DNA of 64,000 bases, taken from positions 320,001 through 384,000 of the forward strand of contig CAXXHO010000003.1 of assembly GCA_963667725.2 (NCBI GenBank), given 5' to 3'. How positions within the stretch are numbered: position 1 is the first letter of the stretch; the number at the start of each line of letters is the position of its first letter. Below, one piece after another: positions 17,282-63,168 of the stretch. Origin of the DNA: Treponemataceae bacterium. GTDB taxonomy: Bacteria > Spirochaetota > Spirochaetia > Treponematales > Rectinemataceae. The notes under the pieces were generated by a model. That model had not been told where the DNA came from and searched no databases. It saw only the letters and a program-made list of their open reading frames with translations. Made by a program: the position numbers and the translations under genes.

Positions 17282-17329
17282 AAATAGTGGAGAATAGGGG
17301 ATTCGAACCCCTGACCTATAGATTGCGAA
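17282..17329 (-). repeat. att core, distal copy (3' half of tRNA-Ala)
   Basis: Identical to 44339-44386: AAATAGTGGAGAATAGGGGATTCGAACCCCTGACCTATAGATTGCGAA. Confidence 0.95.
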
Positions 17330-17473
17330 TCAATGTTAGCATCTTCCCTAACTATCCTACAAACTCCCTATAGTCTACCTTATTTGTTGCACTAAAGCAA
17401 GATATGCTAAAGCTGATGCCTAGTATATCCCTATGATTCCATACAGGATCAGGCGTGCATCTTACAGTCCCTC

Positions 17474-44212: not shown

Positions 44213-44344
44213 AACTATCCTTTGCAAGGTGACTCTTACAGTCACTCTTACAGCTAGATAGTTACAGGAAGAAAAACATTGCTTTCAAAATCAGTAGGTT
44301 TTCGTAAACCTTTATAGTATAAAAACTTACGAAGAAAAAAATAG

Positions 44345-44417
44345 TGGAGAATAGGGGATTCGAACCCCTGACCTATAGATTGCGAACCTATCGCTCTACC
44401 AACTGAGCTAATTCCCC
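44345..44417 (-). tRNA. tRNA-Ala (anticodon CGC), CCA not encoded
   Basis: GGGGAATTAGCTCAGTTGGTAGAGCGATAGGTTCGCAATCTATAGGTCAGGGGTTCGAATCCCCTATTCTCCA; G3:U70 pair. Confidence 0.96.
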
Positions 44418-52862: not shown

Positions 52863-52899
52863 CAAACTGGATGAACTTATCTTTGCGAAAGGATAATTT

Positions 52900-52944
52900 A
52901 GCCGAAGCCGGGAATCGAACCCGGTACCTGCGCATTACGAGTGC
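52900..52944 (-). repeat. 3' fragment of tRNA-Thr(CGT), probable att site of a second island
   Basis: GCACTCGTAATGCGCAGGTACCGGGTTCGATTCCCGGCTTCGGCT; D-arm and 5' acceptor strand absent. Confidence 0.8.
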
Positions 52945-53130
52945 ATATTCTATAAAGCATGCAGTAGCTTATACTACTATAGTATTTACATAATTCGTTT
53001 CAGTCAATAGATATAATATCTATAGCGTTACTTATAATTACTTAGCTTTGCTCTATTAATTATGCAATTTTAGCCAACTTTGCTACCGAATTTGCTACAA
53101 GTATCTTTAGGGGTTTTATCCGTTGGGCTC

Positions 53131-53252: not shown

Positions 53253-55124
53253 TTAATCATCGATTGCTATAGGAAGCGTTATTAAAAATTGGCACCCTGA
53301 CTCTTCAAGATTCTTAACGCTTATTGTACCATCATGTCGCTTGATGATGCCATAACAGATAGAAAGTCCTAACCCTACATTATCCCCTTTTCCTTTATGA
53401 GTTGAATAGAATGGTATGAACACGTTATTTAGGTTTTCGCTTTGAATTCCCGTGCCTGTATCAGTGAATTCAATAGTGGCACGGGATTGTCCCTGAGGGT
53501 CAACAATCGATGAAGTTCTGATCCTGATATCACCTCCTTCTGGCATGGCTTCGAAACTGTTCTTCACTAAATTGAGGATCACCTGCTTTATCTCGTTTCG
53601 GTTTACCATGACCGAGATCTCTTGTTCGCTGGAGTTGAAGGTGATGGCAATTTTTTTGTCACGGGCGCTGATACGAAGCAGGCTGATTATATTCTCGATT
53701 ATTGTGTTCAAGCTGGTTTTCTCACGTCCTGTCTCGGCGGTGCTAGAGAGTGAGAGCAGGTCGCTGACAATGCCAGCGATGTAAGTGATCTCCTCATGGA
53801 GCTCGTCAACTGTCTTATGTAGCTTCACGTCATCGAAAGAAATTTTTATATACTTCAGATAATTATAGATAATCTCGAGAGGATTGTTAATCTCATGCGC
53901 GACTCCTGCAGCGAGGAGCCCGACGGAGGCGAGCTTTTCGGAAAGGATAACCTGCTTCTGAAGCTTGTCGAACTCAGAGATATCCTCAATGGTGATGATG
54001 TTGCCAATACGCTGGTTGTCGTCGAATATTGGGAGGGTTCTCACATTGCTTATTGTTTCGGTTCCGTTGATCGTCAGGGGGACCTGGTAGAACACACCAC
54101 CGTCATCGGTGTGGAGCGACTCGCGGACTAAAGCCAGAACTTTATGGTTTTCCTCCCCGAGGAGCTCCAAAAGGGGACGATTAGCGAAAGTCCCTTCTTC
54201 GAGATGGAAGTATTCCCTGCACAGTTCGTTTACTATCTTCGCCCGTTCCTCCACATCTACAACTATGAGGTTTATGGGCAGCTTCCGGAGGATCGCTTCA
54301 TTATACTTCAGGTACTGGTTGAATTCGCGTTTGTTATTATCGGAATCTGTCAAGGAATAAACCTGTGTATAGGTCAAACGTAGCAGATTCATCTTGTCGA
54401 TGTGGCCGACTTCGTCGGTCATAAGAATTTCACCGTTCTTCACGATGCTCACCCTGTCGGCGAAGTCGTAGACATCTTCGATGCGATGGGTGATGAAGAG
54501 TATCGCCATACCTTTAAGCCGCATCGAGTCCAGGATGTGGAGCACTTTGGGGAGATTGGAGGATGAGAGCTTTTCAAGAGCTTCATCCAGGATCAGGAGC
54601 CTGGGCTTTTTCTGGAGAGCGGCAAGTATCGAGATGAGGGTTCTGTCGGACAGGTTGAGATTGCTTACGATTTCGTTTGGGTTCAGGTTAAAGCTATGGA
54701 GGTCAAATAATACCTGGGCTTGGTTGCTAGAATCCCTCTTTCGCAACATGCCGTGGCGGGCGATTCCTCTGTTTAGAAAGTAGATGTTCTCGGCGACAGT
54801 GAAAAAAGCATTGAGCTGTACCTGTTGATAGACCATCTCGATACCCAGCCGATGGGCGATCGGTATGCTGAGCGATTCAAACGTTTGACCGGCGAACTCT
54901 ATTGTCCCCTTATTAGGCCGTAAATTACCGCTTAGGATCATGCCGAGGGAAGACTTGCCCGCGCCATGTTCGCCGACCAAAGCGTGGATTCGATAGGGAT
55001 AGAGCGTGAGGTTAACGTCTTTGAGCGCCGCGATTTGGCCATAATTATAGGAGATGAATGAAAGACGAGCCAATACGCTTTTTTCGAGGGGGGCAACATT
55101 GGGCTGCTCAGATATTGAGGCCAT
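53253..55124 (-). CDS. Hybrid sensor kinase: sugar-ABC ATPase domain, PAS, HisKA and HATPase
   Basis: GEHGAGKS, LLILDE and ITH; GVAHEINNPL H-box; NLVKNS N-box; DTGTG; GLGL. Confidence 0.85.
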   Translation of the reverse strand: MASISEQPNVAPLEKSVLARLSFISYNYGQIAALKDVNLTLYPYRIHALVGEHGAGKSSLGMILSGNLRPNKGTIEFAGQTFESLSIPIAHRLGIEMVYQQVQLNAFFTVAENIYFLNRGIARHGMLRKRDSSNQAQVLFDLHSFNLNPNEIVSNLNLSDRTLISILAALQKKPRLLILDEALEKLSSSNLPKVLHILDSMRLKGMAILFITHRIEDVYDFADRVSIVKNGEILMTDEVGHIDKMNLLRLTYTQVYSLTDSDNNKREFNQYLKYNEAILRKLPINLIVVDVEERAKIVNELCREYFHLEEGTFANRPLLELLGEENHKVLALVRESLHTDDGGVFYQVPLTINGTETISNVRTLPIFDDNQRIGNIITIEDISEFDKLQKQVILSEKLASVGLLAAGVAHEINNPLEIIYNYLKYIKISFDDVKLHKTVDELHEEITYIAGIVSDLLSLSSTAETGREKTSLNTIIENIISLLRISARDKKIAITFNSSEQEISVMVNRNEIKQVILNLVKNSFEAMPEGGDIRIRTSSIVDPQGQSRATIEFTDTGTGIQSENLNNVFIPFYSTHKGKGDNVGLGLSICYGIIKRHDGTISVKNLEESGCQFLITLPIAIDD

Positions 55125-56430
55125 ACTTTTCCATTTTGTTGTAGAGGGTTTTACGGCTCATGTTTAGAATCTCCGCTGTCTTGGAACGATTGTATTTTGT
55201 GTTCTGGAGAATTCTGATGATCAAGTCCTTGTCCATGTCCTGACGAATATCGACCGACTCGTAATTATCGCCTTTGCCGAATAGATTTACAGGCAGATCT
55301 TCCATTTCGATACAAGCTCCTCGGGACATTGCGGTAGCATAGCTAAGGACATTCTTCAGCTCACGCACATTCCCCGGCCAGCTGTAATCTAAAAACCTTT
55401 TCGCGACATCGTGCGATAATTCTTTACGGCAATTGCCGATGTGCTCAGCAAGGAAGTGATCGACAAGAAGGGGGATATCTCCCTTGCGTTCCCTGAGTGG
55501 AGGGACGGTGAGGACGGCGGCGTTGAGGCGATAGTACAAGTCCTCACGGAAAAGGTTTTTTCGGATTAAATCGAGCAGGTCTTTGTTTGTCGCGGCGATG
55601 AATCGCACATCGATCTTTATTGTCGCGCTTCCTCCCAGTCGCCGTATTTCGCTATTCTGCAGCGTTCTGAGGATCTTGGCTTGGATGCTGAGAGGCATGT
55701 CACCTATCTCATCAAGGAAGAGCGTACTTTTATCAGCTTTTTCAAAAAGGCCTTTGAAGATCGAATCAGCGCCGGTATATGCTCCCTTTTCGTGCCCGAA
55801 AAGCTCGTTGTCTAAAAGGGTTTCTGCGAAGGCTACGCAGTTGATCTTGACCATTGGCAGAGCGCTACGCGACGAAGCAGCGTGAATATAATCGGCTAAT
55901 ACTTCCTTTCCGGTTCCGCTTTCGCCTAAAACTAAAACGGGGAGATCCGTCTGCGCAAGTCTGTCCATCTTATTTCTGAGTTCAGTCATGTGGGAATCAG
56001 AGGAGATGATAGTAACTGAAAGCTCCCGAAGCCGGGATTTTAGATTGGTATTCTCGGTTTGGAGCCTGGAGAATTCGAGAGCTTTCTCAACAATTATCAA
56101 GAGTTCGTCGAAATCGATGGGTTTTTTGACATAGTCGAATGCGCCGAGTTTGAGGGACTGCACTGCCGTCTCTACTGAGGCGAAAGCGGTGATCATGATC
56201 ACGGGAATGGCTTTGTTGATGGCTTGTAGGTTCTTCAATAGGTCGATGCCACTTTCCTTGCCGAGCATTATATCAAGAAGCACAACATCGATTCCGCCAG
56301 CGGAGAATGCTGAAAGCGCTTCCTTAACGCCGGTGACGATCACTGTGTGATAATCCAGATGTTCGAAATTCTGCGCTAAGCTGACGCAGACCTTCACCTT
56401 GTCGTCGACGATAAGGATGGTTTTTTTCAT
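55108..56430 (-). CDS. NtrC-family sigma54-dependent response regulator
   Basis: Receiver domain; GESGTGKE; ELFGHEKGAYTGA; WPGNVREL; Fis-type HTH. Confidence 0.93.
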   Translation of the reverse strand: MKKTILIVDDKVKVCVSLAQNFEHLDYHTVIVTGVKEALSAFSAGGIDVVLLDIMLGKESGIDLLKNLQAINKAIPVIMITAFASVETAVQSLKLGAFDYVKKPIDFDELLIIVEKALEFSRLQTENTNLKSRLRELSVTIISSDSHMTELRNKMDRLAQTDLPVLVLGESGTGKEVLADYIHAASSRSALPMVKINCVAFAETLLDNELFGHEKGAYTGADSIFKGLFEKADKSTLFLDEIGDMPLSIQAKILRTLQNSEIRRLGGSATIKIDVRFIAATNKDLLDLIRKNLFREDLYYRLNAAVLTVPPLRERKGDIPLLVDHFLAEHIGNCRKELSHDVAKRFLDYSWPGNVRELKNVLSYATAMSRGACIEMEDLPVNLFGKGDNYESVDIRQDMDKDLIIRILQNTKYNRSKTAEILNMSRKTLYNKMEKYGLNI

Positions 56431-56468
56431 TTTTCTCCATCAACATTACTCACTTCGATATCGCAGAA

Positions 56469-56485
56469 TGAGTAAAAATTACTCA
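56469..56485. promoter_or_regulatory. Palindromic candidate enhancer (UAS) for the sigma54 activator
   Basis: TGAGTAA-AAA-TTACTCA, ~115 bp upstream of the -24/-12 site. Confidence 0.55.
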
Positions 56486-56599
56486 ATTAGTATGAGGGCC
56501 CAAAATCATACTGTCAATCTTTATTTTTTGCACTAATTTAAAAGGTTATGCTACAGTGGATTGATAAGCAATCATATTATTACTGCTATTTTGCTTCCA

Positions 56600-56615
56600 T
56601 GGCATGTTTCTTGCT
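56600..56615 (+). promoter_or_regulatory. sigma54 -24/-12 promoter
   Basis: TGGCATGTTTCTTGCT fits TGGCAC-N5-TTGCW. Confidence 0.75.
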
Positions 56616-56677
56616 ATGTACTTTGCTGTGACTATCGGAAGTTTTCCGACGAATAATCGAGAAGGAGGAAACAACTA

Positions 56678-57637
56678 ATGAAAAGGATTCGGTCTCTTGT
56701 GTTCATCCTGACCGCGGTCGCGATGGTATTCTCAGCCATGGCCGTAGGCGCTCAGGCAAAGCAAGTCAAGATCGCCGTAGTAAACCTCGCGCAGAGCAGC
56801 CCATACTTCATCGGTATGGCCGAGGCGATTAAACAGGAGGGGGCCCACTTTTCCAACATCAAGGTTATCGTTACCGATGCCAAGGGAGACGCGCAAAAAC
56901 TGACTTCCGACGTAGAAGATGTTCTCGCACAGAACGTCGACGGAATAATCCTGAGCGGTGCCTGGCTCGAATCGGCTCCTGAGGTTTTAGATTCTATCCA
57001 AAGGGCTAAGGTTCCCGTAGTACTCGTCGACAGAATGTTTACGGGGCCAAGTAGCGATAAATACACTAGCTGGGTTGGCCCGGACAATTACCTAATTGGG
57101 CAACAGGTCGGCGCTTATATTGCGAAACGTCTCAAGGGAGTCGGAACCGTCGTAATCCTGAAAGGTGGACCCGCAGACAATTCGATCGGTTATAACCGGA
57201 CCAATGGTGTCCTCTCCGAGCTTAAAAAAACTAAAATCGTAACGATAGCGGCTCCAAACTATGGTGGATGGAGTTCGGATGGCGGCTTTAAGCTCATGGA
57301 AGATCTCCTTGCTAAATACAAGCAGATAGACGCAGTTTTTGCAGAGAACGATTCCATGGCTCTCGGCGCCCAGAAAGCAATTGCTGATGCGAAACGCACC
57401 GATAAAATATTCATTTGTGGCGTCGATGGCGAAAAGGCAGCCCTCGAAGAGATTGCCAAGAAAACAAATTATGCTGCCAGCGGACTCAATAGCTCTGATC
57501 AGATCGGCCGTGCCGGCTTCACGCGCCTCATGACCATACTCGCTGGAGCCGTCCCTGAAAAGAACACAGTTATGGCATCCCCAATAATTACTATCGACAA
57601 TGTCCAGAGGTTCTATTTCCCTGAGAGCGTGTTCTGA
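56678..57637 (+). CDS. Sugar ABC transporter substrate-binding protein
   Basis: Signal peptide; VPVVLVDR, VGPDN and NDSMALGA motifs. Confidence 0.9.
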   Translation: MKRIRSLVFILTAVAMVFSAMAVGAQAKQVKIAVVNLAQSSPYFIGMAEAIKQEGAHFSNIKVIVTDAKGDAQKLTSDVEDVLAQNVDGIILSGAWLESAPEVLDSIQRAKVPVVLVDRMFTGPSSDKYTSWVGPDNYLIGQQVGAYIAKRLKGVGTVVILKGGPADNSIGYNRTNGVLSELKKTKIVTIAAPNYGGWSSDGGFKLMEDLLAKYKQIDAVFAENDSMALGAQKAIADAKRTDKIFICGVDGEKAALEEIAKKTNYAASGLNSSDQIGRAGFTRLMTILAGAVPEKNTVMASPIITIDNVQRFYFPESVF

Positions 57638-57682
57638 TCTTCATCCAGGCCCCCTCTTTAGGGGGCCTCTGCATCTATCCCA

Positions 57683-59164
57683 ATGGAGAGATTCTATATG
57701 AAAATGCTCATAGATAGCCAATGGACAGATTCGGCCAACCATCAAACCAAGGTTGTCAAAAATCCTGGTACAGGGGAAGTTATCGACGAGGTTCCCCAGG
57801 CGACCGAAGGCGATATCGATCGAGCTCTCAAGGCAGCAGAGGAAGGCAAGAAGAGGATGAGCGCGACACCAGCGTATCGTCGAACCGAGATACTTACACG
57901 CGCAGCCGAAATAATTCACGAACGTAAGGAAGAGCTTGCGACGCTTTTAGCCAAAGAAAACGGCAAACCAATAGGCCAAACACGCGCCGAAGTCGAGGTT
58001 GCGGGACGTCTTTTTAGCGGATTTGCCGAGGAAGGTCGACGTATGTTCGGTCGTACCATCCCCATGGATTCGGTCCCTGGCAATGAGCGCCACTTTGCGA
58101 TGACCATCAGACAGCCGATCGGCGTTGTTGCCGCGATCGTTCCGTTCAACTATCCAGTGGAGTTGTTTGCCCATAAAGTCGCAGCAGCTTTAGCAGCTGG
58201 CAACGCAGTGATTACAAAACCACCAAGTGCTTGTCCCCTTACGCTCCTTAAAATCGCAGAGATTCTTGAGAATGCGGGACTACCGCGCGGAGTGCATCAA
58301 ATGATAACGGGACCGGGCGAGCTGGTAGGGGAGCGTCTTGCCTTAAGCCCTATAGTGCGCCTTCTATCGCTCACTGGAAGTGTCCCTGTCGGTATCAAGC
58401 TTGCGGAACTCGGTGCGAAGAATCTCCAGAAAATCCACCTGGAACTCGGCGGCAACGATGCCATGATAGTATGTGTAGATGCCGATATTGAGAAAGCGAC
58501 CGATGCTGTCATCCTGGGGCGACTCGCTCGAGGGAATGGCCAAATCTGTTGCGCAGTCAAACGGATTTTTATAGACCGTCGTATCTATAAAGATTTCTGC
58601 GCAATGTTAGTTTTAAAAGCCTCTCACCTCAAGGTTGGGGATCAATTAGCTGAGGATACCGATTGTGGACCCTTAATTTCAGAAAACGCCGCAAGAAAGG
58701 TTGAGAATTCCATAATCGAAGCGGTGAGGGCAGGTGCGAAGCTTCTCTATGGAGGATCGCGCAACGGCGCTTTCATTATACCTACTGTTCTTGCCGAGGT
58801 TTCCCCCTCGATGCCCTTGTTCCAGGAAGAGACCTTTGGGCCGGTGGCCCCTCTTGTGGCATTTCAAAATGTGGAGGAGGCGATACGAATGGCTAATGAT
58901 AGCCAGTTCGGATTACAAGCTTCCGTTTTTACAAACGATATCTCCCAAGCTATGACCATTGCCCGCCAATTGGAAGCTGGAGGCATCATCATCAACTGGT
59001 CTTCAGCGCTACGAGCTGAGAATGTACCTTTCGGGGGGATTAAGTTGAGCGGTCATGGCCGAGAAGCATTGCATGACACCCTTACCGGAATGACTGAAGA
59101 GAAAGCGATCATTATTCACAATGCTTTTCCGCAAGCTCTAAACCGAGAGGTGGTGGAGCCATGA
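57683..59164 (+). CDS. Aldehyde dehydrogenase family protein
   Basis: PFNYP, TGS, LELGGND, GQICC, EETFGP and PFGG motifs. Confidence 0.92.
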   Translation: MERFYMKMLIDSQWTDSANHQTKVVKNPGTGEVIDEVPQATEGDIDRALKAAEEGKKRMSATPAYRRTEILTRAAEIIHERKEELATLLAKENGKPIGQTRAEVEVAGRLFSGFAEEGRRMFGRTIPMDSVPGNERHFAMTIRQPIGVVAAIVPFNYPVELFAHKVAAALAAGNAVITKPPSACPLTLLKIAEILENAGLPRGVHQMITGPGELVGERLALSPIVRLLSLTGSVPVGIKLAELGAKNLQKIHLELGGNDAMIVCVDADIEKATDAVILGRLARGNGQICCAVKRIFIDRRIYKDFCAMLVLKASHLKVGDQLAEDTDCGPLISENAARKVENSIIEAVRAGAKLLYGGSRNGAFIIPTVLAEVSPSMPLFQEETFGPVAPLVAFQNVEEAIRMANDSQFGLQASVFTNDISQAMTIARQLEAGGIIINWSSALRAENVPFGGIKLSGHGREALHDTLTGMTEEKAIIIHNAFPQALNREVVEP

Positions 59165-60720
59165 ATGCGGCGGCTTTTCTGCGAATGGAGGGGATTACAA
59201 AAAAGTATGGTGGCACGACTGCACTAAAGAATGTAAGCCTGTCTGCTGGGCTTGGTGAAGTTCATGCCATCGTCGGCGAAAATGGTGCCGGCAAATCCAC
59301 GTTGATGAATATCCTCTCTGGCGCTATCGAGCCCGACTTAGGAAGCATTTCCCTGGGGGCTACAACGGTGACGATTCGTTCTCCGCACCATGCCAATTCC
59401 TTGGGTATACGAGCCGTACACCAGGAGTTCAGCCTTGTGCCGCAACTGACTATCGCGGAGAACATTCTCATGGGGAAGTTGCCTACCCGTGGCAAGAGGC
59501 ACATAGTTATCGACTGGCCAAAGGCTTATGAAAAGGCGCGAGGGATTCTCGCCGAATTGGGCTTCGCAGGCATCGATGAACGTACCCGCGTTTTTCGCTT
59601 AAGTGTTTCTCAACAGCAGGTAGTGGAGATTGCCAAGGCTCTCGCCGAAAAGCCGAGCGTCTTGATTCTGGACGAACCTTCAGCGGTCCTATCGAAGGAA
59701 GAGCTCTCTCTCCTCTTTGCTCTGATACGGCGGCTCAAGGCTGAGAAGACGCTGATACTCTACATCTCACATAGGCTCGAAGAAGTATTCGAGATCGCTG
59801 ACCGTATCACTGTTCTCAGAGATGGTGAAGTGATCGATACTGTGATGTGCGATTCCATCGATCAAAATGATCTAATCCGCATGATGGTCGGGCGCTCTTT
59901 TGAGGAAATCTATCCTAAGCGCACGACGAAGATCGGGAAAGAAGTGCTTACCATCCATAATCTCTCTCGCGAGGGGGAATTCAGTGATATCGATTTTTCA
60001 CTTCATCGCGGAGAGGTCCTGGGTATGTTCGGCCTCGTCGGAAGCGGAAGGACCGCTATCGCGAGGAGCATTTTCGGGGCTGATCCCCCAACATCAGGAA
60101 GCATCGAAGTAGATGGTAAAGTATTACGGTTGCATACGCCCCATAATGCAGTGAACACAGGTATTTCCCTTGTGACGGAGGATCGTAAGCGGGATGGGCT
60201 GGTGTTGACGGGCACGATTTGTGACAACGTGAGCCTAGCTTCTTACCCCCGAATGAGCAACGGTATATTCTTGAACCGAAAGCTCCAAGAAAAGCTAGTG
60301 GAGGAAAAGATAAGGGCGCTTGCGCTGAAGCCCCAAAAAATCAAGGCTTTTGTGAAAACATTAAGTGGCGGCAATCAACAGAAAGTAATTCTTGCGAAGT
60401 GGTTGTTGTGTAATACAAAAGTACTCATTCTCGATGAACCTACGAGGGGCGTGGATATCGGCGCGAAAGTCGAGATCTACCATCTCATCAACGTCCTTGT
60501 CGAATCAGGAGTTGGGGTGTTGCTTATATCCTCGGAGATGCCCGAGGTCCTTGGTATGAGTGATAGGATACTTGTGATGCGTGAAGGGCGGCTCGTAGGC
60601 GATATCAGCCGGGATAAAGCCAGTGAAGAGAGAATTCTTCAGCTCGCGGCGGGTGTATCGCGTGAAGCTGATGGGTTAAATATTGCGCTAAGCGGAATTA
60701 CGATGGAGGGTAAGGCATGA
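59161..60720 (+). CDS. Sugar ABC transporter ATP-binding protein (tandem NBD)
   Basis: GENGAGKS; LSGGNQQK; DEPTRGVD. Confidence 0.93.
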   Translation: MNAAAFLRMEGITKKYGGTTALKNVSLSAGLGEVHAIVGENGAGKSTLMNILSGAIEPDLGSISLGATTVTIRSPHHANSLGIRAVHQEFSLVPQLTIAENILMGKLPTRGKRHIVIDWPKAYEKARGILAELGFAGIDERTRVFRLSVSQQQVVEIAKALAEKPSVLILDEPSAVLSKEELSLLFALIRRLKAEKTLILYISHRLEEVFEIADRITVLRDGEVIDTVMCDSIDQNDLIRMMVGRSFEEIYPKRTTKIGKEVLTIHNLSREGEFSDIDFSLHRGEVLGMFGLVGSGRTAIARSIFGADPPTSGSIEVDGKVLRLHTPHNAVNTGISLVTEDRKRDGLVLTGTICDNVSLASYPRMSNGIFLNRKLQEKLVEEKIRALALKPQKIKAFVKTLSGGNQQKVILAKWLLCNTKVLILDEPTRGVDIGAKVEIYHLINVLVESGVGVLLISSEMPEVLGMSDRILVMREGRLVGDISRDKASEERILQLAAGVSREADGLNIALSGITMEGKA

Positions 60721-61670
60721 AAACGACTACACCATTAATCGAGAAGACCAGGTGGATGTTCAAGATACGCTCATCCGATATCATTTTTATCGTGACTTTC
60801 GCGATTTTGTTCCTTGTAAGTTCCCTACTTTTGGACACGTTTTTTACGGCGAGGAATCTCTTCAATATTTCTCGACAAATCGTCACGAACGGCTTTATAA
60901 GCATTGGAATGCTCATCGTCATCCTCGCGGGCGGTGTTGACTTATCGGTAGGTTGTACCGTGGCGCTCTGTGGCATTATGGCTACGGGGCTCCAGAAGAT
61001 GATGCCGACACCTTTTGCGATCCTCGTCGCACTGGCTGTGGGCCTTTTTATCGGGTTCATAAATGGTTTCTTTATCGCGCAATTAAAGCTTCAACCCTTT
61101 ATCGTTACTCTTGCCTCCATGGGCGTCATTCGTGGGGCAACCTATGTCTTCTCCGAGGTTCCACAGTCTCCTGTCGATCCACTCTTTCGTTCCCTTCTCG
61201 GTGGAGGATTCATCGGTGCGGTTCCTGTCGCACCGCTCATCATGATTGTCTTTTATTTTTTAGCCTGGTTCTTCCTCAACCGGACAATCCCGGGCAGAGC
61301 GATCACTGCGATCGGCGGCAACAAGGAAGCCGTAAGGCTGGCGGGAATCAACGTCAAAGGCCATCTTATCCTCGCCTATATGCTCTGCGGATTCTTTGCT
61401 AGTGCTGCGGGCATCATTCTGGCTTCGCGGCTGGGCATCGCTCAACCGAGTGTCGGAGCCGGATTCGAACTGGATGCGATCGCGGCCGTGGTGATCGGCG
61501 GAGGTGTAATGACTGGCGGAAGCGGCGGGGCTGTTGGTACCTTCTTCGGTGTGCTCGCTCTCGGCTTTATCGACAACTTGCTCAATCAGTTCAATGTCCA
61601 GTCCTATTATCAGCAAATTGTTAAGGGAATCATTATCCTTGTGGCGGTAGTCTCGCGCAGGAAGAGCTGA
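60717..61670 (+). CDS. Sugar ABC transporter permease (RbsC-like)
   Basis: GVDLSVG; PFIVTL; ELDAIAAVVIGG. Confidence 0.92.
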   Translation: MKTTTPLIEKTRWMFKIRSSDIIFIVTFAILFLVSSLLLDTFFTARNLFNISRQIVTNGFISIGMLIVILAGGVDLSVGCTVALCGIMATGLQKMMPTPFAILVALAVGLFIGFINGFFIAQLKLQPFIVTLASMGVIRGATYVFSEVPQSPVDPLFRSLLGGGFIGAVPVAPLIMIVFYFLAWFFLNRTIPGRAITAIGGNKEAVRLAGINVKGHLILAYMLCGFFASAAGIILASRLGIAQPSVGAGFELDAIAAVVIGGGVMTGGSGGAVGTFFGVLALGFIDNLLNQFNVQSYYQQIVKGIIILVAVVSRRKS

Positions 61671-61712
61671 TTGGTCTGCTCTCCTCTCCGGCTTCACAAG
61701 AAAGGGCACTTT

Positions 61713-62171
61713 ATGAATGCGTATGAGAATTTGAAGAAACTCGGGTATTCTCTTCCAGACCTGCCACCGCTCGCAGGACTCTATGTAAAGCTGAAACGTA
61801 TCGACCATATGGCCTATGTTTCCGGACAAGGTTGCACTCTCAAAGGACGGCCTGCCTATATGGGGAAAGTGGGGGCCAATCTATCTTTGGAAGAGGGACA
61901 GGAAGCGGCGAGAATCTGCACTCTTAATGCATTGGCAATATTGGATGATTCGCTTGGTTCGCTTGATAAGGTGAAAAACGTGGTGAAGGTGCTCGGTTTT
62001 GTCGCGAGTGCCCATGATTTCAACAGTCAGCCGGCGGTTATCAATGGTTGTTCCCAGCTTCTCATAGATGTGTTCGGCGAAGCGGGGAGGCACGCGCGCT
62101 CCGCTATAGGCGTCAGTGAGTTGCCTGGAAATATCCCTGTCGAAATTGAGTTCATATTCGAGGTGGAGTAA
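61713..62171 (+). CDS. RidA/YjgF family protein
   Basis: YVSGQ, VINGCSQLL, HARSAIG and PVEIE motifs. Confidence 0.88.
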   Translation: MNAYENLKKLGYSLPDLPPLAGLYVKLKRIDHMAYVSGQGCTLKGRPAYMGKVGANLSLEEGQEAARICTLNALAILDDSLGSLDKVKNVVKVLGFVASAHDFNSQPAVINGCSQLLIDVFGEAGRHARSAIGVSELPGNIPVEIEFIFEVE

Positions 62172-62272: not shown

Positions 62273-62760
62273 TGTATTTCGTCAAGCCGAAATACGCCAA
62301 AAAATCGTACAAAAGTACCCATCAGCTCGTGGGTAATTTTACCTGACCTTTCTGCCGCATGAGGGCGTGTTTCATTCGGTAGCTTTCGCCCTCGAAGAGT
62401 AGAATGTGGCCATGGTGGGCAAGCCTGTCGATCATCGCGGCAGCCATCTGATCATCAGTAAAGATCGTCCCCCACTTGGAGAACTCAAGATTGGTCGTGA
62501 GAATAACGCTTCGGCGCTCATAGGAATCTGCAATTATCCTGAACAGGAGCTGAGCTCCTTGCCGGTCGACGAGAACATAGCCCCATTCGTCAATGATCAA
62601 GAGATCAGCCCTTGCGATGTACTTTATAAGCCGCTCAAGAGATCCTTCCTTGAGGGCTTCGGAAAGCTTTACCACGAGTTCTGCCGCGGTAAAGAACTTG
62701 GTACGGAAGGAGCGAAAGCACGCGGCAACGCCAAGGGCAGTAGCAAGATGTGTCTTCCTG
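62273..62760 (-). pseudogene. istB: IS21-family istB 3' remnant with probable terminal IR
   Basis: LLIIDEWGY, TTNLEFSKW and AMIDRLAHH; 5' part missing. Confidence 0.8.
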
Positions 62761-62774
62761 GTTCCTACGGGGCC

Positions 62775-62838
62775 ACTCCTCTTTTACTGCTTCGAGGGCA
62801 ACCATTGCCTTATACTGCTCGTCGAACTTCTTCCTCAT
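62775..62838 (-). pseudogene. IS3 orfA 5' fragment
   Basis: MRKKFDEQYKAMVALEAVKEE resembles the orfA at 16727-17029. Confidence 0.6.
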
Positions 62839-62874
62839 GGTGGACTCTCCTTCTTCTAGGATATTCCACCTTAT

Positions 62875-63168
62875 TCAGTTTCTGTAGTGGTCCGGCCCGT
62901 TGGGCTCAGCATAATGATTTTTGATCACCTGCCATGTTGGACTATTTATTTTAAGCGCAGGGATTCTACGTTTTGCTCGCTTATCAGTAGTCCGCTGCGC
63001 GAGAAATGGGTTATATAAGCCTCTATCGTGTCCCTTTTTAAGTTCACGCGATATGGTTGACTTTGAAAAACCCATCATTTTAGCGATAGCCCCTTGGCTA
63101 TTCCCAAGATTTAGGTAAACGGTAATCTCTTCACGATCTTTGTTCGTGATTCTTCTGTATTTTCCCAC
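62875..63168 (-). pseudogene. IS30-family transposase N-terminal fragment
   Basis: YRRIT..DREEI...IAKMMGFSKSTISRELKK...YNPFLAQ; no DDE domain. Confidence 0.7.

Follow-up and report, generated by a model that had tools for sequence, protein, structure and literature searches.

A soluble histidine kinase family with a fused importer-type ATPase domain, encoded beside CUT2-type importers and possibly docking on their permeases

Histidine kinases that sense through an ATP-binding cassette (ABC) transporter are the closest described counterparts of the protein examined here, a 623-residue histidine kinase whose N-terminal part is an ABC nucleotide-binding domain (NBD). It is encoded beside a CUT2-type importer in a 64,000-nt stretch of DNA from a Treponemataceae bacterium (assembly GCA_963667725.2, contig CAXXHO010000003.1, positions 320,001-384,000 of the forward strand), which we call the window and whose positions are used for all coordinates below. 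Among the counterparts, BceS is membrane-anchored and BceAB is a resistance transporter of another fold, while PhoR has a PAS domain. The BceAB-BceRS system of Firmicutes resembles the locus in that an ABC transporter directly contacts the kinase that controls the transporter's own genes; however, as far as PMC6978683 describes it, BceS is a separate kinase without a transporter domain, whereas here a soluble kinase carries the NBD and is paired with a sigma54 activator. The likeness to PstSCAB-PhoU-PhoR/PhoB lies in the use of an importer that depends on a solute-binding protein (SBP) as the sensor for a kinase without an extracellular sensor domain. In the account given in PMC6978683 the Pst system uses the adaptor PhoU on the working ATPase PstB, whereas here the kinase itself bears the ATPase-derived domain. 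Bce-type features were not found at the locus, where the kinase has no hydrophobic segment and the transporter is an SBP-dependent CUT2 importer. Pfam detected no PhoU or phosphate importer in the locus, which comprises seven genes, and the kinase scored 108 bits against the PhoR model, whose cut-off is 334.

The fusion family is real and conserved, it is apparently undescribed, and the support for direct docking of its NBD on the permease is indirect but convergent. On the 623-residue open reading frame (ORF), Pfam confirmed the fusion that had been predicted from the sequence, with ABC_tran at residues 34-183 (E 4e-22), PAS_4 at 280-385, HisKA at 402-461, and HATPase_c at 509-620. As also predicted, the NBD is colinear with the N-terminal half (N-half) of the transport ATPase encoded at 59161 (residues 20-256 versus 8-251, 33% identity, E 3e-36; 19% identity to the C-half), and it falls far under the cut-offs of the NCBIfam CUT2 ATPase models (153 versus 850 for YtfR). 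The Walker A (GEHGAGKS, 51-58), Q-loop (Q100), Walker B (ILDE, 178-181), and H-loop (H213) motifs can all be read from the sequence. The original prediction had missed that the signature position reads LNLSDR instead of LSGGQ and that the D-loop, DEALEKL, has no proline. In the kinase part, which is of the NtrB/AtoS-like HisKA type, the phospho-acceptor histidine is H410, HisKA and HATPase_c score above cut-off, and H410, N518, N522, D555-G557-G559, and G584-G586 are invariant in 69 aligned proteins, with the H-box and the N, G1, F, and G2 boxes all in place. The predicted lack of a membrane segment held up as well, since the highest 19-residue hydropathy is 1.39 in the kinase versus 2.62 in the permease; a peak above 1.9 occurs in 7 of 214 family members. 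By mean identity, PAS is the most variable domain (48%), followed by the NBD (53%), the kinase catalytic domain (54%), and DHp (72%). A single-chain model of the kinase (predicted local distance difference test score, pLDDT, 77; predicted template modelling score, pTM, 0.43) and a fold search, in which the NBD and kinase parts were matched separately, gave no information on domain packing.

A protein search listed 120 homologues, 117 of which (query included) exceed 560 residues; the full-length ones are 47-75% identical, and to judge from the source names they come from Spirochaetia, KSB3 (Vecturithrix, Moduliflexus), and Desulfomarina. When 50%-identity representatives were searched with a profile, both the NBD and the kinase part were found in 123 of the 124 hits of 560-700 residues. 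A 142-residue probe spanning the NBD-PAS junction matched 83 of the 401 genomes of the window's class, with up to eight copies per genome (G491), and all 60 regions fetched from the final hit lists contain a fusion ORF. An assembly artefact or read-through was rejected on the strength of the homologue lengths and the fetched regions, and a fusion unique to this assembly is excluded by the 83 genomes and the full-length homologues. In databases the family is named only automatically, and a metagenome scan returned one fusion among 79 loci, the rest being dominated by ordinary kinases.

Several further proteins deserve mention. The same genome encodes a second fusion, 28% identical to the first, with its own importer and regulator (L033:4961-13057, equal to G000:C5:196960-205056). 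In this locus the genes are all co-directional, the NBD lacks the H-loop His, and a 535-residue ORF without a Pfam match lies between SBP and ATPase. Three divergent members (P0208, P0247, and P0210, the first from Planctomycetota by source name) have a shortened segment before the Q-loop and degenerate Walker A and H-loop motifs. Two protein-atlas clusters from Actinomycetota, of ~830-850 residues and with 166 and 64 members, combine ABC_tran, GAF_2, and HisKA (scores 0.83-0.84, leads only) and may represent an independent fusion of like kind.

Gene context was annotated for the window, 16 search loci, L053, L033, and 139 regions from genomes, with long contigs favoured at first. Excluded from the counts were L182 and L183, which duplicate L007 and L003, L012 and L052, in which the kinase is split or truncated, and loci that hold ordinary kinases. 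The neighbourhoods are those of Spirochaetota; members from KSB3, Desulfomarina, and Planctomycetota are known from protein names alone. An NtrC-type gene lies immediately upstream of the kinase in 151 of the 152 loci with room (155 fusion genes). Where at least 7 kb upstream and at least 5 kb downstream of the kinase were available, a CUT2-type permease was found within 8 kb in 102 of 106 loci and an ATPase as well in 100; the 16 other kinases of this genome have no such neighbour, and random intervals have one in 9.6% of cases. Among divergent loci, a -24/-12 site faces the importer in 95 of 103 and the regulator in none (shuffles, 5%). Because the loci share kinship, these counts show conservation and are not independent trials. 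Nonetheless, synteny and promoter conservation strongly support sigma54 control of the operon, as originally proposed; in the window, the divergent SBP-ALDH-ATPase-permease order and the -24/-12 site were both confirmed by Pfam and sequence. The regulator has the REC domain, the AAA+ domain with a GAFTGA-like loop, and the HTH of an NtrC-type protein, and a sigma54 gene is encoded in this genome. Kinase core and NtrC-type regulator co-evolve (rho 0.82), and from this and their near-constant adjacency we infer that the kinase probably transfers its phosphoryl group to the neighbouring regulator.

Some neighbourhoods depart from the common arrangement. An extra CUT2 permease gene without SBP or ATPase directly follows the kinase gene, convergently, in four loci (L015:11789-12751, L016:11693-12758, L192:12370-13542, and L241:1991-2983) and could have been kept for signalling. 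At L041:853-8275 a family member stands next to a LIV/HAAT-type importer, whose permease is also of the BPD_transp_2 family, and L169 (G549:C2:243000-262900) holds two full regulator-kinase-importer units back to back, each with its own importer.

In a FastTree tree of 377 domains, all 213 fused NBDs form one clade (support 0.78), which groups with 79 N-halves of neighbouring ATPases (support 1.0) to the exclusion of C-halves and single-domain ATPases. The fusion therefore arose once in this family, from the N-half of a CUT2 ATPase. Walker A is kept in 203 of the 213 fused NBDs, the Walker B DE in 188, the Q-loop Gln in 178, and the H-loop in 150; all four motifs are kept in 131 and at least one is missing in 82. 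The Walker A Lys is retained in 97%, and 75% of fused domains have His where N-halves invariably have the Walker A Asn. LSGG occurs in none of the 213, versus 79/79 C-halves and 5/6 single-domain ATPases, and the D-loop proline (DEP) in two, versus 79/79 N-halves. Lacking both signature and D-loop, a kinase homodimer cannot complete a catalytic site, and the motif pattern suggests that the fused NBD binds ATP with little or no hydrolysis, as a switch and not a motor. ATP hydrolysis by this domain is unlikely to drive uptake; every complete importer (100 of the 106 loci) has its own ATPase, so the fused domain is not the motor. The helices that link NBD and PAS are conserved in a family-specific manner (D243 86%, L247 90%, Y252 93%), as would be expected of a signal-transmitting link. 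A role-less relic of a chance fusion would be compatible with the degenerate signature and D-loop and with the 82 domains missing a catalytic motif. We nevertheless hold it to be very improbable, given that the NBDs form one ancient clade in which members down to 26-28% identity retain the whole domain, that the Walker A Lys is almost always kept, and that conservation of the NBD matches that of the kinase catalytic domain.

The intact Walker A, Walker B, and H-loop could also be completed by the LSGGNQQ of the ATPase C-half, if the kinase NBD bound the transport ATPase, or if the two shared one permease dimer in a mixed complex, so that the kinase read the transport cycle. Fused NBDs are slightly nearer their own ATPase in residues 119-175 (mean percentile 0.59, p=0.002), and of the CUT2 ATPases in this genome the neighbouring one matches the fused-NBD profile best, though narrowly (184 versus 178 bits). 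However, in a tandem double-NBD ATPase the two halves occupy both coupling loops and cover both NBD faces, distances between NBDs hardly correlate with those between ATPases (0.07 combined), and the invariant Walker A Asn has mostly been replaced, and flux sensing of this kind seems to us quite improbable. Repeated capture of the neighbouring ATPase was considered as an origin of the fused domains and rejected, since they form one clade and, within the interface segment, do not resemble their own ATPase more than others (p=0.2). The latter result also speaks against gene conversion as an origin of the covariation between NBD and permease.

This covariation was analyzed in 62 non-redundant loci, after ambiguous, incomplete, and near-duplicate ones had been removed. 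Across these loci NBD distances follow those of the kinase core (rho 0.76) and not those of the whole permease (0.04), which indicates that the regulator-kinase pair has changed to unrelated importers, yet has remained next to one. A whole-protein mirror-tree of NBD against permease was accordingly abandoned, its value of 0.19 with close relatives included falling to 0.04 once redundancy was removed. Segments fixed beforehand from knowledge of type I importers (NBD 59-71 plus 84-118, permease 184-216) were then compared with correction for the rest of both proteins. For the discovery set (n=45) this gave a partial r of 0.25 (p=0.0007), for the held-out set (n=28), retrieved later, 0.32 (p=0.001), and for both combined 0.25, a value reached by none of 939 other window pairs (maximum 0.19, standard deviation 0.06). 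It was robust, ranging from 0.23 to 0.29 on jackknifing and standing at 0.22 in distant pairs only. Sliding windows peak at NBD 80-114 and permease 185-228, and in the discovery set the transport ATPase peaks there too. Column-pair covariation proved uninformative, its top ranks being taken by near-invariant columns; in this analysis 17 of 22 predicted contact pairs were positive, with a mean z of 1.0.

The structure prediction suggested at the outset, with the permease encoded at 60717, was run as well. The predicted complex of two permeases and one NBD scored 0.61, versus 0.00 for the best of three controls, with runs sharing at least 93% of contacts and a partner pLDDT of at least 80. The predicted interface joins permease 189-211 and 268-269 to NBD 67, 87-91, 97-108, and 113-127, which are largely the segments tested for covariation. 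A sequence search of the PDB copy returned no CUT2 permease. As a model, this pass indicates that a docking surface has been retained, which is not proof of binding.

A third line of evidence comes from loci without an importer, of which there are four among those with room: L136, L160, and L189, which form one clade, and L046. In the first three, no importer occurs in the fetched 20 kb, and the kinases are missing 12 residues before the Q-loop, including the predicted contacts 87, 88, and 91. The same deletion is found in L234, whose contig is too short to judge the importer, and in no other intact-start gene among 155. At the level of sequence, a deletion in a transporter-less subclade is what loss of the partner would predict. 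The claim that the fused NBD docks on the permease is thus supported by segment covariation, the predicted complex, and this deletion, all of them indirect. The neighbours of the kinases with the deletion are two zinc dehydrogenases, a DJ-1/PfpI protein, and a glycyl-radical enzyme with its activator; -24/-12 sites occur on either side.

That the module persists without a neighbouring importer keeps alive a different explanation, in which the NBD is a permease-independent cytoplasmic sensor of ATP/ADP or of a metabolite, its dimerisation gates the kinase, and the importer is merely a regulated target. L136, L160, and L189 keep Walker A, Walker B, and the H-loop and have their sigma54 sites before catabolic genes, the importer-less L046 lies beside a LacI-type gene and genes resembling the araBDA set, and the whole-domain histories of NBD and permease are uncorrelated, all of which would suit such a sensor. 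It leaves unexplained, however, why covariation is limited to the two predicted contact segments, why 96% of loci are linked to one permease superfamily, and how up to eight paralogues per genome distinguish their substrates; we regard it as rather unlikely.

HisKA kinases are homodimers. The CUT2 permease is a homodimer too, according to the treatment of CUT2 organisation in PMC11212667, so that the two NBDs of a kinase dimer can fill both coupling loops in place of the transport ATPase. Our current hypothesis, which we consider somewhat favoured by the evidence, is that the NBD docks on the permease coupling loop and turns the permease movement that follows SBP loading into kinase activity, and from there into NtrC-type regulator activity at the sigma54 importer promoter. 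Conversion of substrate binding or transport into phosphorylation by docking, as first proposed, would proceed as follows. NBD residues 87-127 are predicted, with statistical support, to contact permease 189-211, and the receptor would be an SBP-permease2-kinase2 assembly that coexists with working transporters. Loaded SBP would shift the coupling loops, and the two NBDs would close or move around ATP; helices 236-282 and PAS would relay this shift to H410, then to D53 of the regulator, and finally to the sigma54 promoter. Substrate may either switch the kinase on or relieve an off state. Sugar specificity would be supplied by SBP and permease, which would explain how members of a single kinase family could come to work with many unrelated importers. 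Sensing of loaded SBP is more likely than sensing of transport flux by the kinase-bound complex, because the kinase homodimer has neither signature motif nor D-loop with which to form a catalytic site.

Docking could, however, serve as a tether or a means of sequestration only. The signal would then be an imported sugar or catabolite bound at PAS, or the release of the kinase when the ATPase competes it off an idle permease. This is compatible with all of the docking evidence, and varied ligands would predict that PAS is the most variable domain. PAS distances weakly track SBP distances (r=0.15, p=0.04; corrected 0.10, p=0.15), and the CbrA PAS domain binds histidine, as reported in PMC7096432. 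On the other hand, a tether needs no Walker A, Walker B, or near-invariant NBD-PAS linker, and each re-partnering would demand a new PAS specificity. Sequestration or tethering without signalling through the NBD therefore appears unlikely to us.

A number of observations weigh against docking as a signalling device, beginning with the fact that all evidence for it is computational. The covariation is modest and related loci are not independent: in the 17 held-out loci without a close discovery relative, r falls to 0.17 (p=0.07). The positive control, the interface of the transport ATPase, gave 0.21 in the discovery set and did not replicate in the held-out set (0.06 and -0.04), and windows of the NtrC-type regulator reached 0.26-0.30 in small sets and 0.17 combined. 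No interface pair is among the top 30 column pairs, and E101 is kept in 91% of N-halves and 18% of fused NBDs. As for the predicted complex, docking of an NBD on the coupling helix is the textbook ABC fit, and the pass may mean no more than that any ABC NBD would fit there. Unrelated proteins served as controls, rather than other NBDs or non-cognate permeases, and close cousins of true partners pass too. In calibration, the mark was attained by 116 of 157 complexes of solved structure and by 2 of 215 mismatched pairs, rates that hold only roughly for these alignments and a three-chain job. The deletion is a single evolutionary event, the sister loci L190 and L134 had already diverged in the deleted segment and still stand beside importers, and the deleted proteins retain their nucleotide-binding motifs, while L046 is without an importer and without the deletion. 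Because the parts of the receptor are themselves under the sigma54 promoter, a basal leak would be needed. Finally, the sections of PMC7096432 on CbrA report that its kinase activity does not require the fused transporter domain.

If docking does signal, a bolder form of the hypothesis follows, which we put forward tentatively, as a little short of an even chance. The kinase dimer would replace the ATPase on the permease dimer, SBP and permease would together serve as an extracellular receptor, and the NBD pair would be an ATP-clamped switch that reads the permease conformation. Since retuning a short contact patch would suffice, a single family could then have been rewired to dozens of unrelated importers. 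Were this so, fermentative spirochaetes and KSB3 bacteria would sense any imported sugar in a modular manner and without a membrane sensor.

The features of the locus are collected in Table 1. The NtrC-type gene and the kinase start overlap by 17 bp. The predicted enhancer lies 115-155 bp upstream of the sigma54 site; other subfamilies have different 17-bp TG-N13-CA palindromes, and a family-wide enhancer motif was rejected, the window's core being present in only 9 of 95 loci. Just 3' of the sigma54 promoter, the leader palindrome at 56635-56649 shows paired changes in its outer arms; it is confined to this subclade and could serve as the operator of a second regulator or fold as an RNA hairpin. 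Neither the SBP nor the aldehyde dehydrogenase (ALDH) matches an NCBIfam model above cut-off, the best for ALDH being lactaldehyde dehydrogenase (488 versus 650), and the nearest solved SBPs bear generic names, so no substrate is assignable; a CUT2 SBP together with an ALDH suggests a small sugar, polyol, or aldehyde. The gene first called RidA, at the end of the operon, does belong to the Rid family. Its identity as RidA did not stand (TIGR00004, 30 bits versus a cut-off of 106), and it lies just beyond 53253..61670.

Table 1. Genes and regulatory elements of the locus, in window positions
Feature	Position	Strand	Basis
Soluble histidine kinase, 623 aa: CUT2 N-half-type NBD (~18-235), linker helices (236-282), PAS (283-385), DHp with H410, CA	53253..55124	-	ORF, Pfam, alignment
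NtrC-type response regulator: REC with D53, sigma54 AAA+ with GAYTGA, HTH_8	55108..56430	-	Pfam
Predicted enhancer: palindrome TGAGTAA-N3-TTACTCA (56469-56485) and further half-site TTACTCA (56446-56452)	56446..56485	.	Kept in 12 aligned close loci
Predicted sigma70 promoter TTGACA-17-CATACT for the regulator-kinase pair, abuts enhancer	56489..56517	-	Sequence; -35 near-invariant in 12 aligned loci
sigma54 -24/-12 promoter TGGCATGTTTCTTGCT, faces importer operon	56600..56615	+	Conserved across 12 aligned close loci
Leader palindrome TCGGAA-GTT-TTCCGA	56635..56649	+	GGAAGT.TTCC core in 12/12 aligned loci
CUT2-type SBP, Peripla_BP_4	56678..57637	+	Pfam
ALDH, confined to this subclade of loci	57683..59164	+	Pfam, neighbourhood comparison
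Complete double-NBD CUT2 transport ATPase, C-half with LSGGNQQ	59161..60720	+	Pfam, NCBIfam
CUT2 permease, BPD_transp_2; cytoplasmic loop 189-211 is the predicted kinase-NBD docking site	60717..61670	+	Pfam, covariation, predicted complex
Rid-family gene, accessory, likely start ATG 61713	61671..62171	+	Pfam; beside permease only in window, L008, L012

The locus sits between a tRNA-Thr(CGT) gene (52899-52975) and fragments of IS21 istB and an HTH_38 gene, the latter presumably IS30-like (62322-63168). Its GC content is 0.49 versus 0.56 for the contig, an ALDH orthologue occurs in 1 of 20 relatives, and the nearest fusion relatives belong to another family of the class. These flanks, the GC content, the rarity of the ALDH, and the distant relatives suggest a horizontally moved module. 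Elsewhere in the window, two same-strand tRNA-Ala(CGC) genes (17287-17360 and 44344-44417) flank a 27-kb stretch of low GC (0.29-0.42) that is possibly an integrated element.

Beyond the Bce and Pst systems, the fused domain most resembles the N-terminal NBD of CUT2 ATPases (RbsA, AraG, XylG, MglA, YtfR, AlsA), with which it is colinear over ~240 residues, shares active Walker A/B and H-loop motifs and a degenerate signature, and forms a sister clade. Unlike these ATPases, it has no C-half, has lost the D-loop proline, mostly carries His for the Walker A Asn, and has gained a new conserved C-terminal helix that runs into PAS. In overall plan the kinase resembles CbrA/CbrB of Pseudomonas, in which, as PMC7096432 describes, a transporter-derived module is joined to PAS-DHp-CA and the regulator acts on sigma54-dependent catabolic genes. 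By the same description, CbrA carries a whole SLC5 membrane transporter and STAC and itself transports histidine, whereas the part fused to the present kinase is limited to an ABC importer's soluble NBD; Pfam found neither SLC5 nor STAC domains in the kinase. Trigger transporters such as DcuB/DctA with DcuS and UhpC with UhpB are alike in that a transporter or its homologue is the co-sensor of a two-component system, as covered in parts of PMC7096432 and PMC11109136; these are secondary carriers on membrane kinases, with no NBD. The portion of PMC11109136 concerned with the kinship of transporters and receptors contains no NBD-kinase fusion. In the full texts searched we found no description of the family and, in line with the original prediction, no characterised example, although genome papers or census tables may mention it.

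If signalling through a docked NBD is borne out, signals would have a novel path across the membrane to a soluble kinase, and the standing question of whether importer movements driven by SBP can be read apart from transport would become directly accessible. The fused domain would be a natural reporter of permease conformation for CUT2, a class without a solved permease in the PDB copy searched. Swapping the predicted contact patch, which is short and specific, should be straightforward, and so should the engineering of sugar sensors. In the co-sensing cases compared here, the kinase is separate from the transporter, is reached through an adaptor, or carries a whole membrane carrier; in this family, the kinase would instead use the docking site of the motor.

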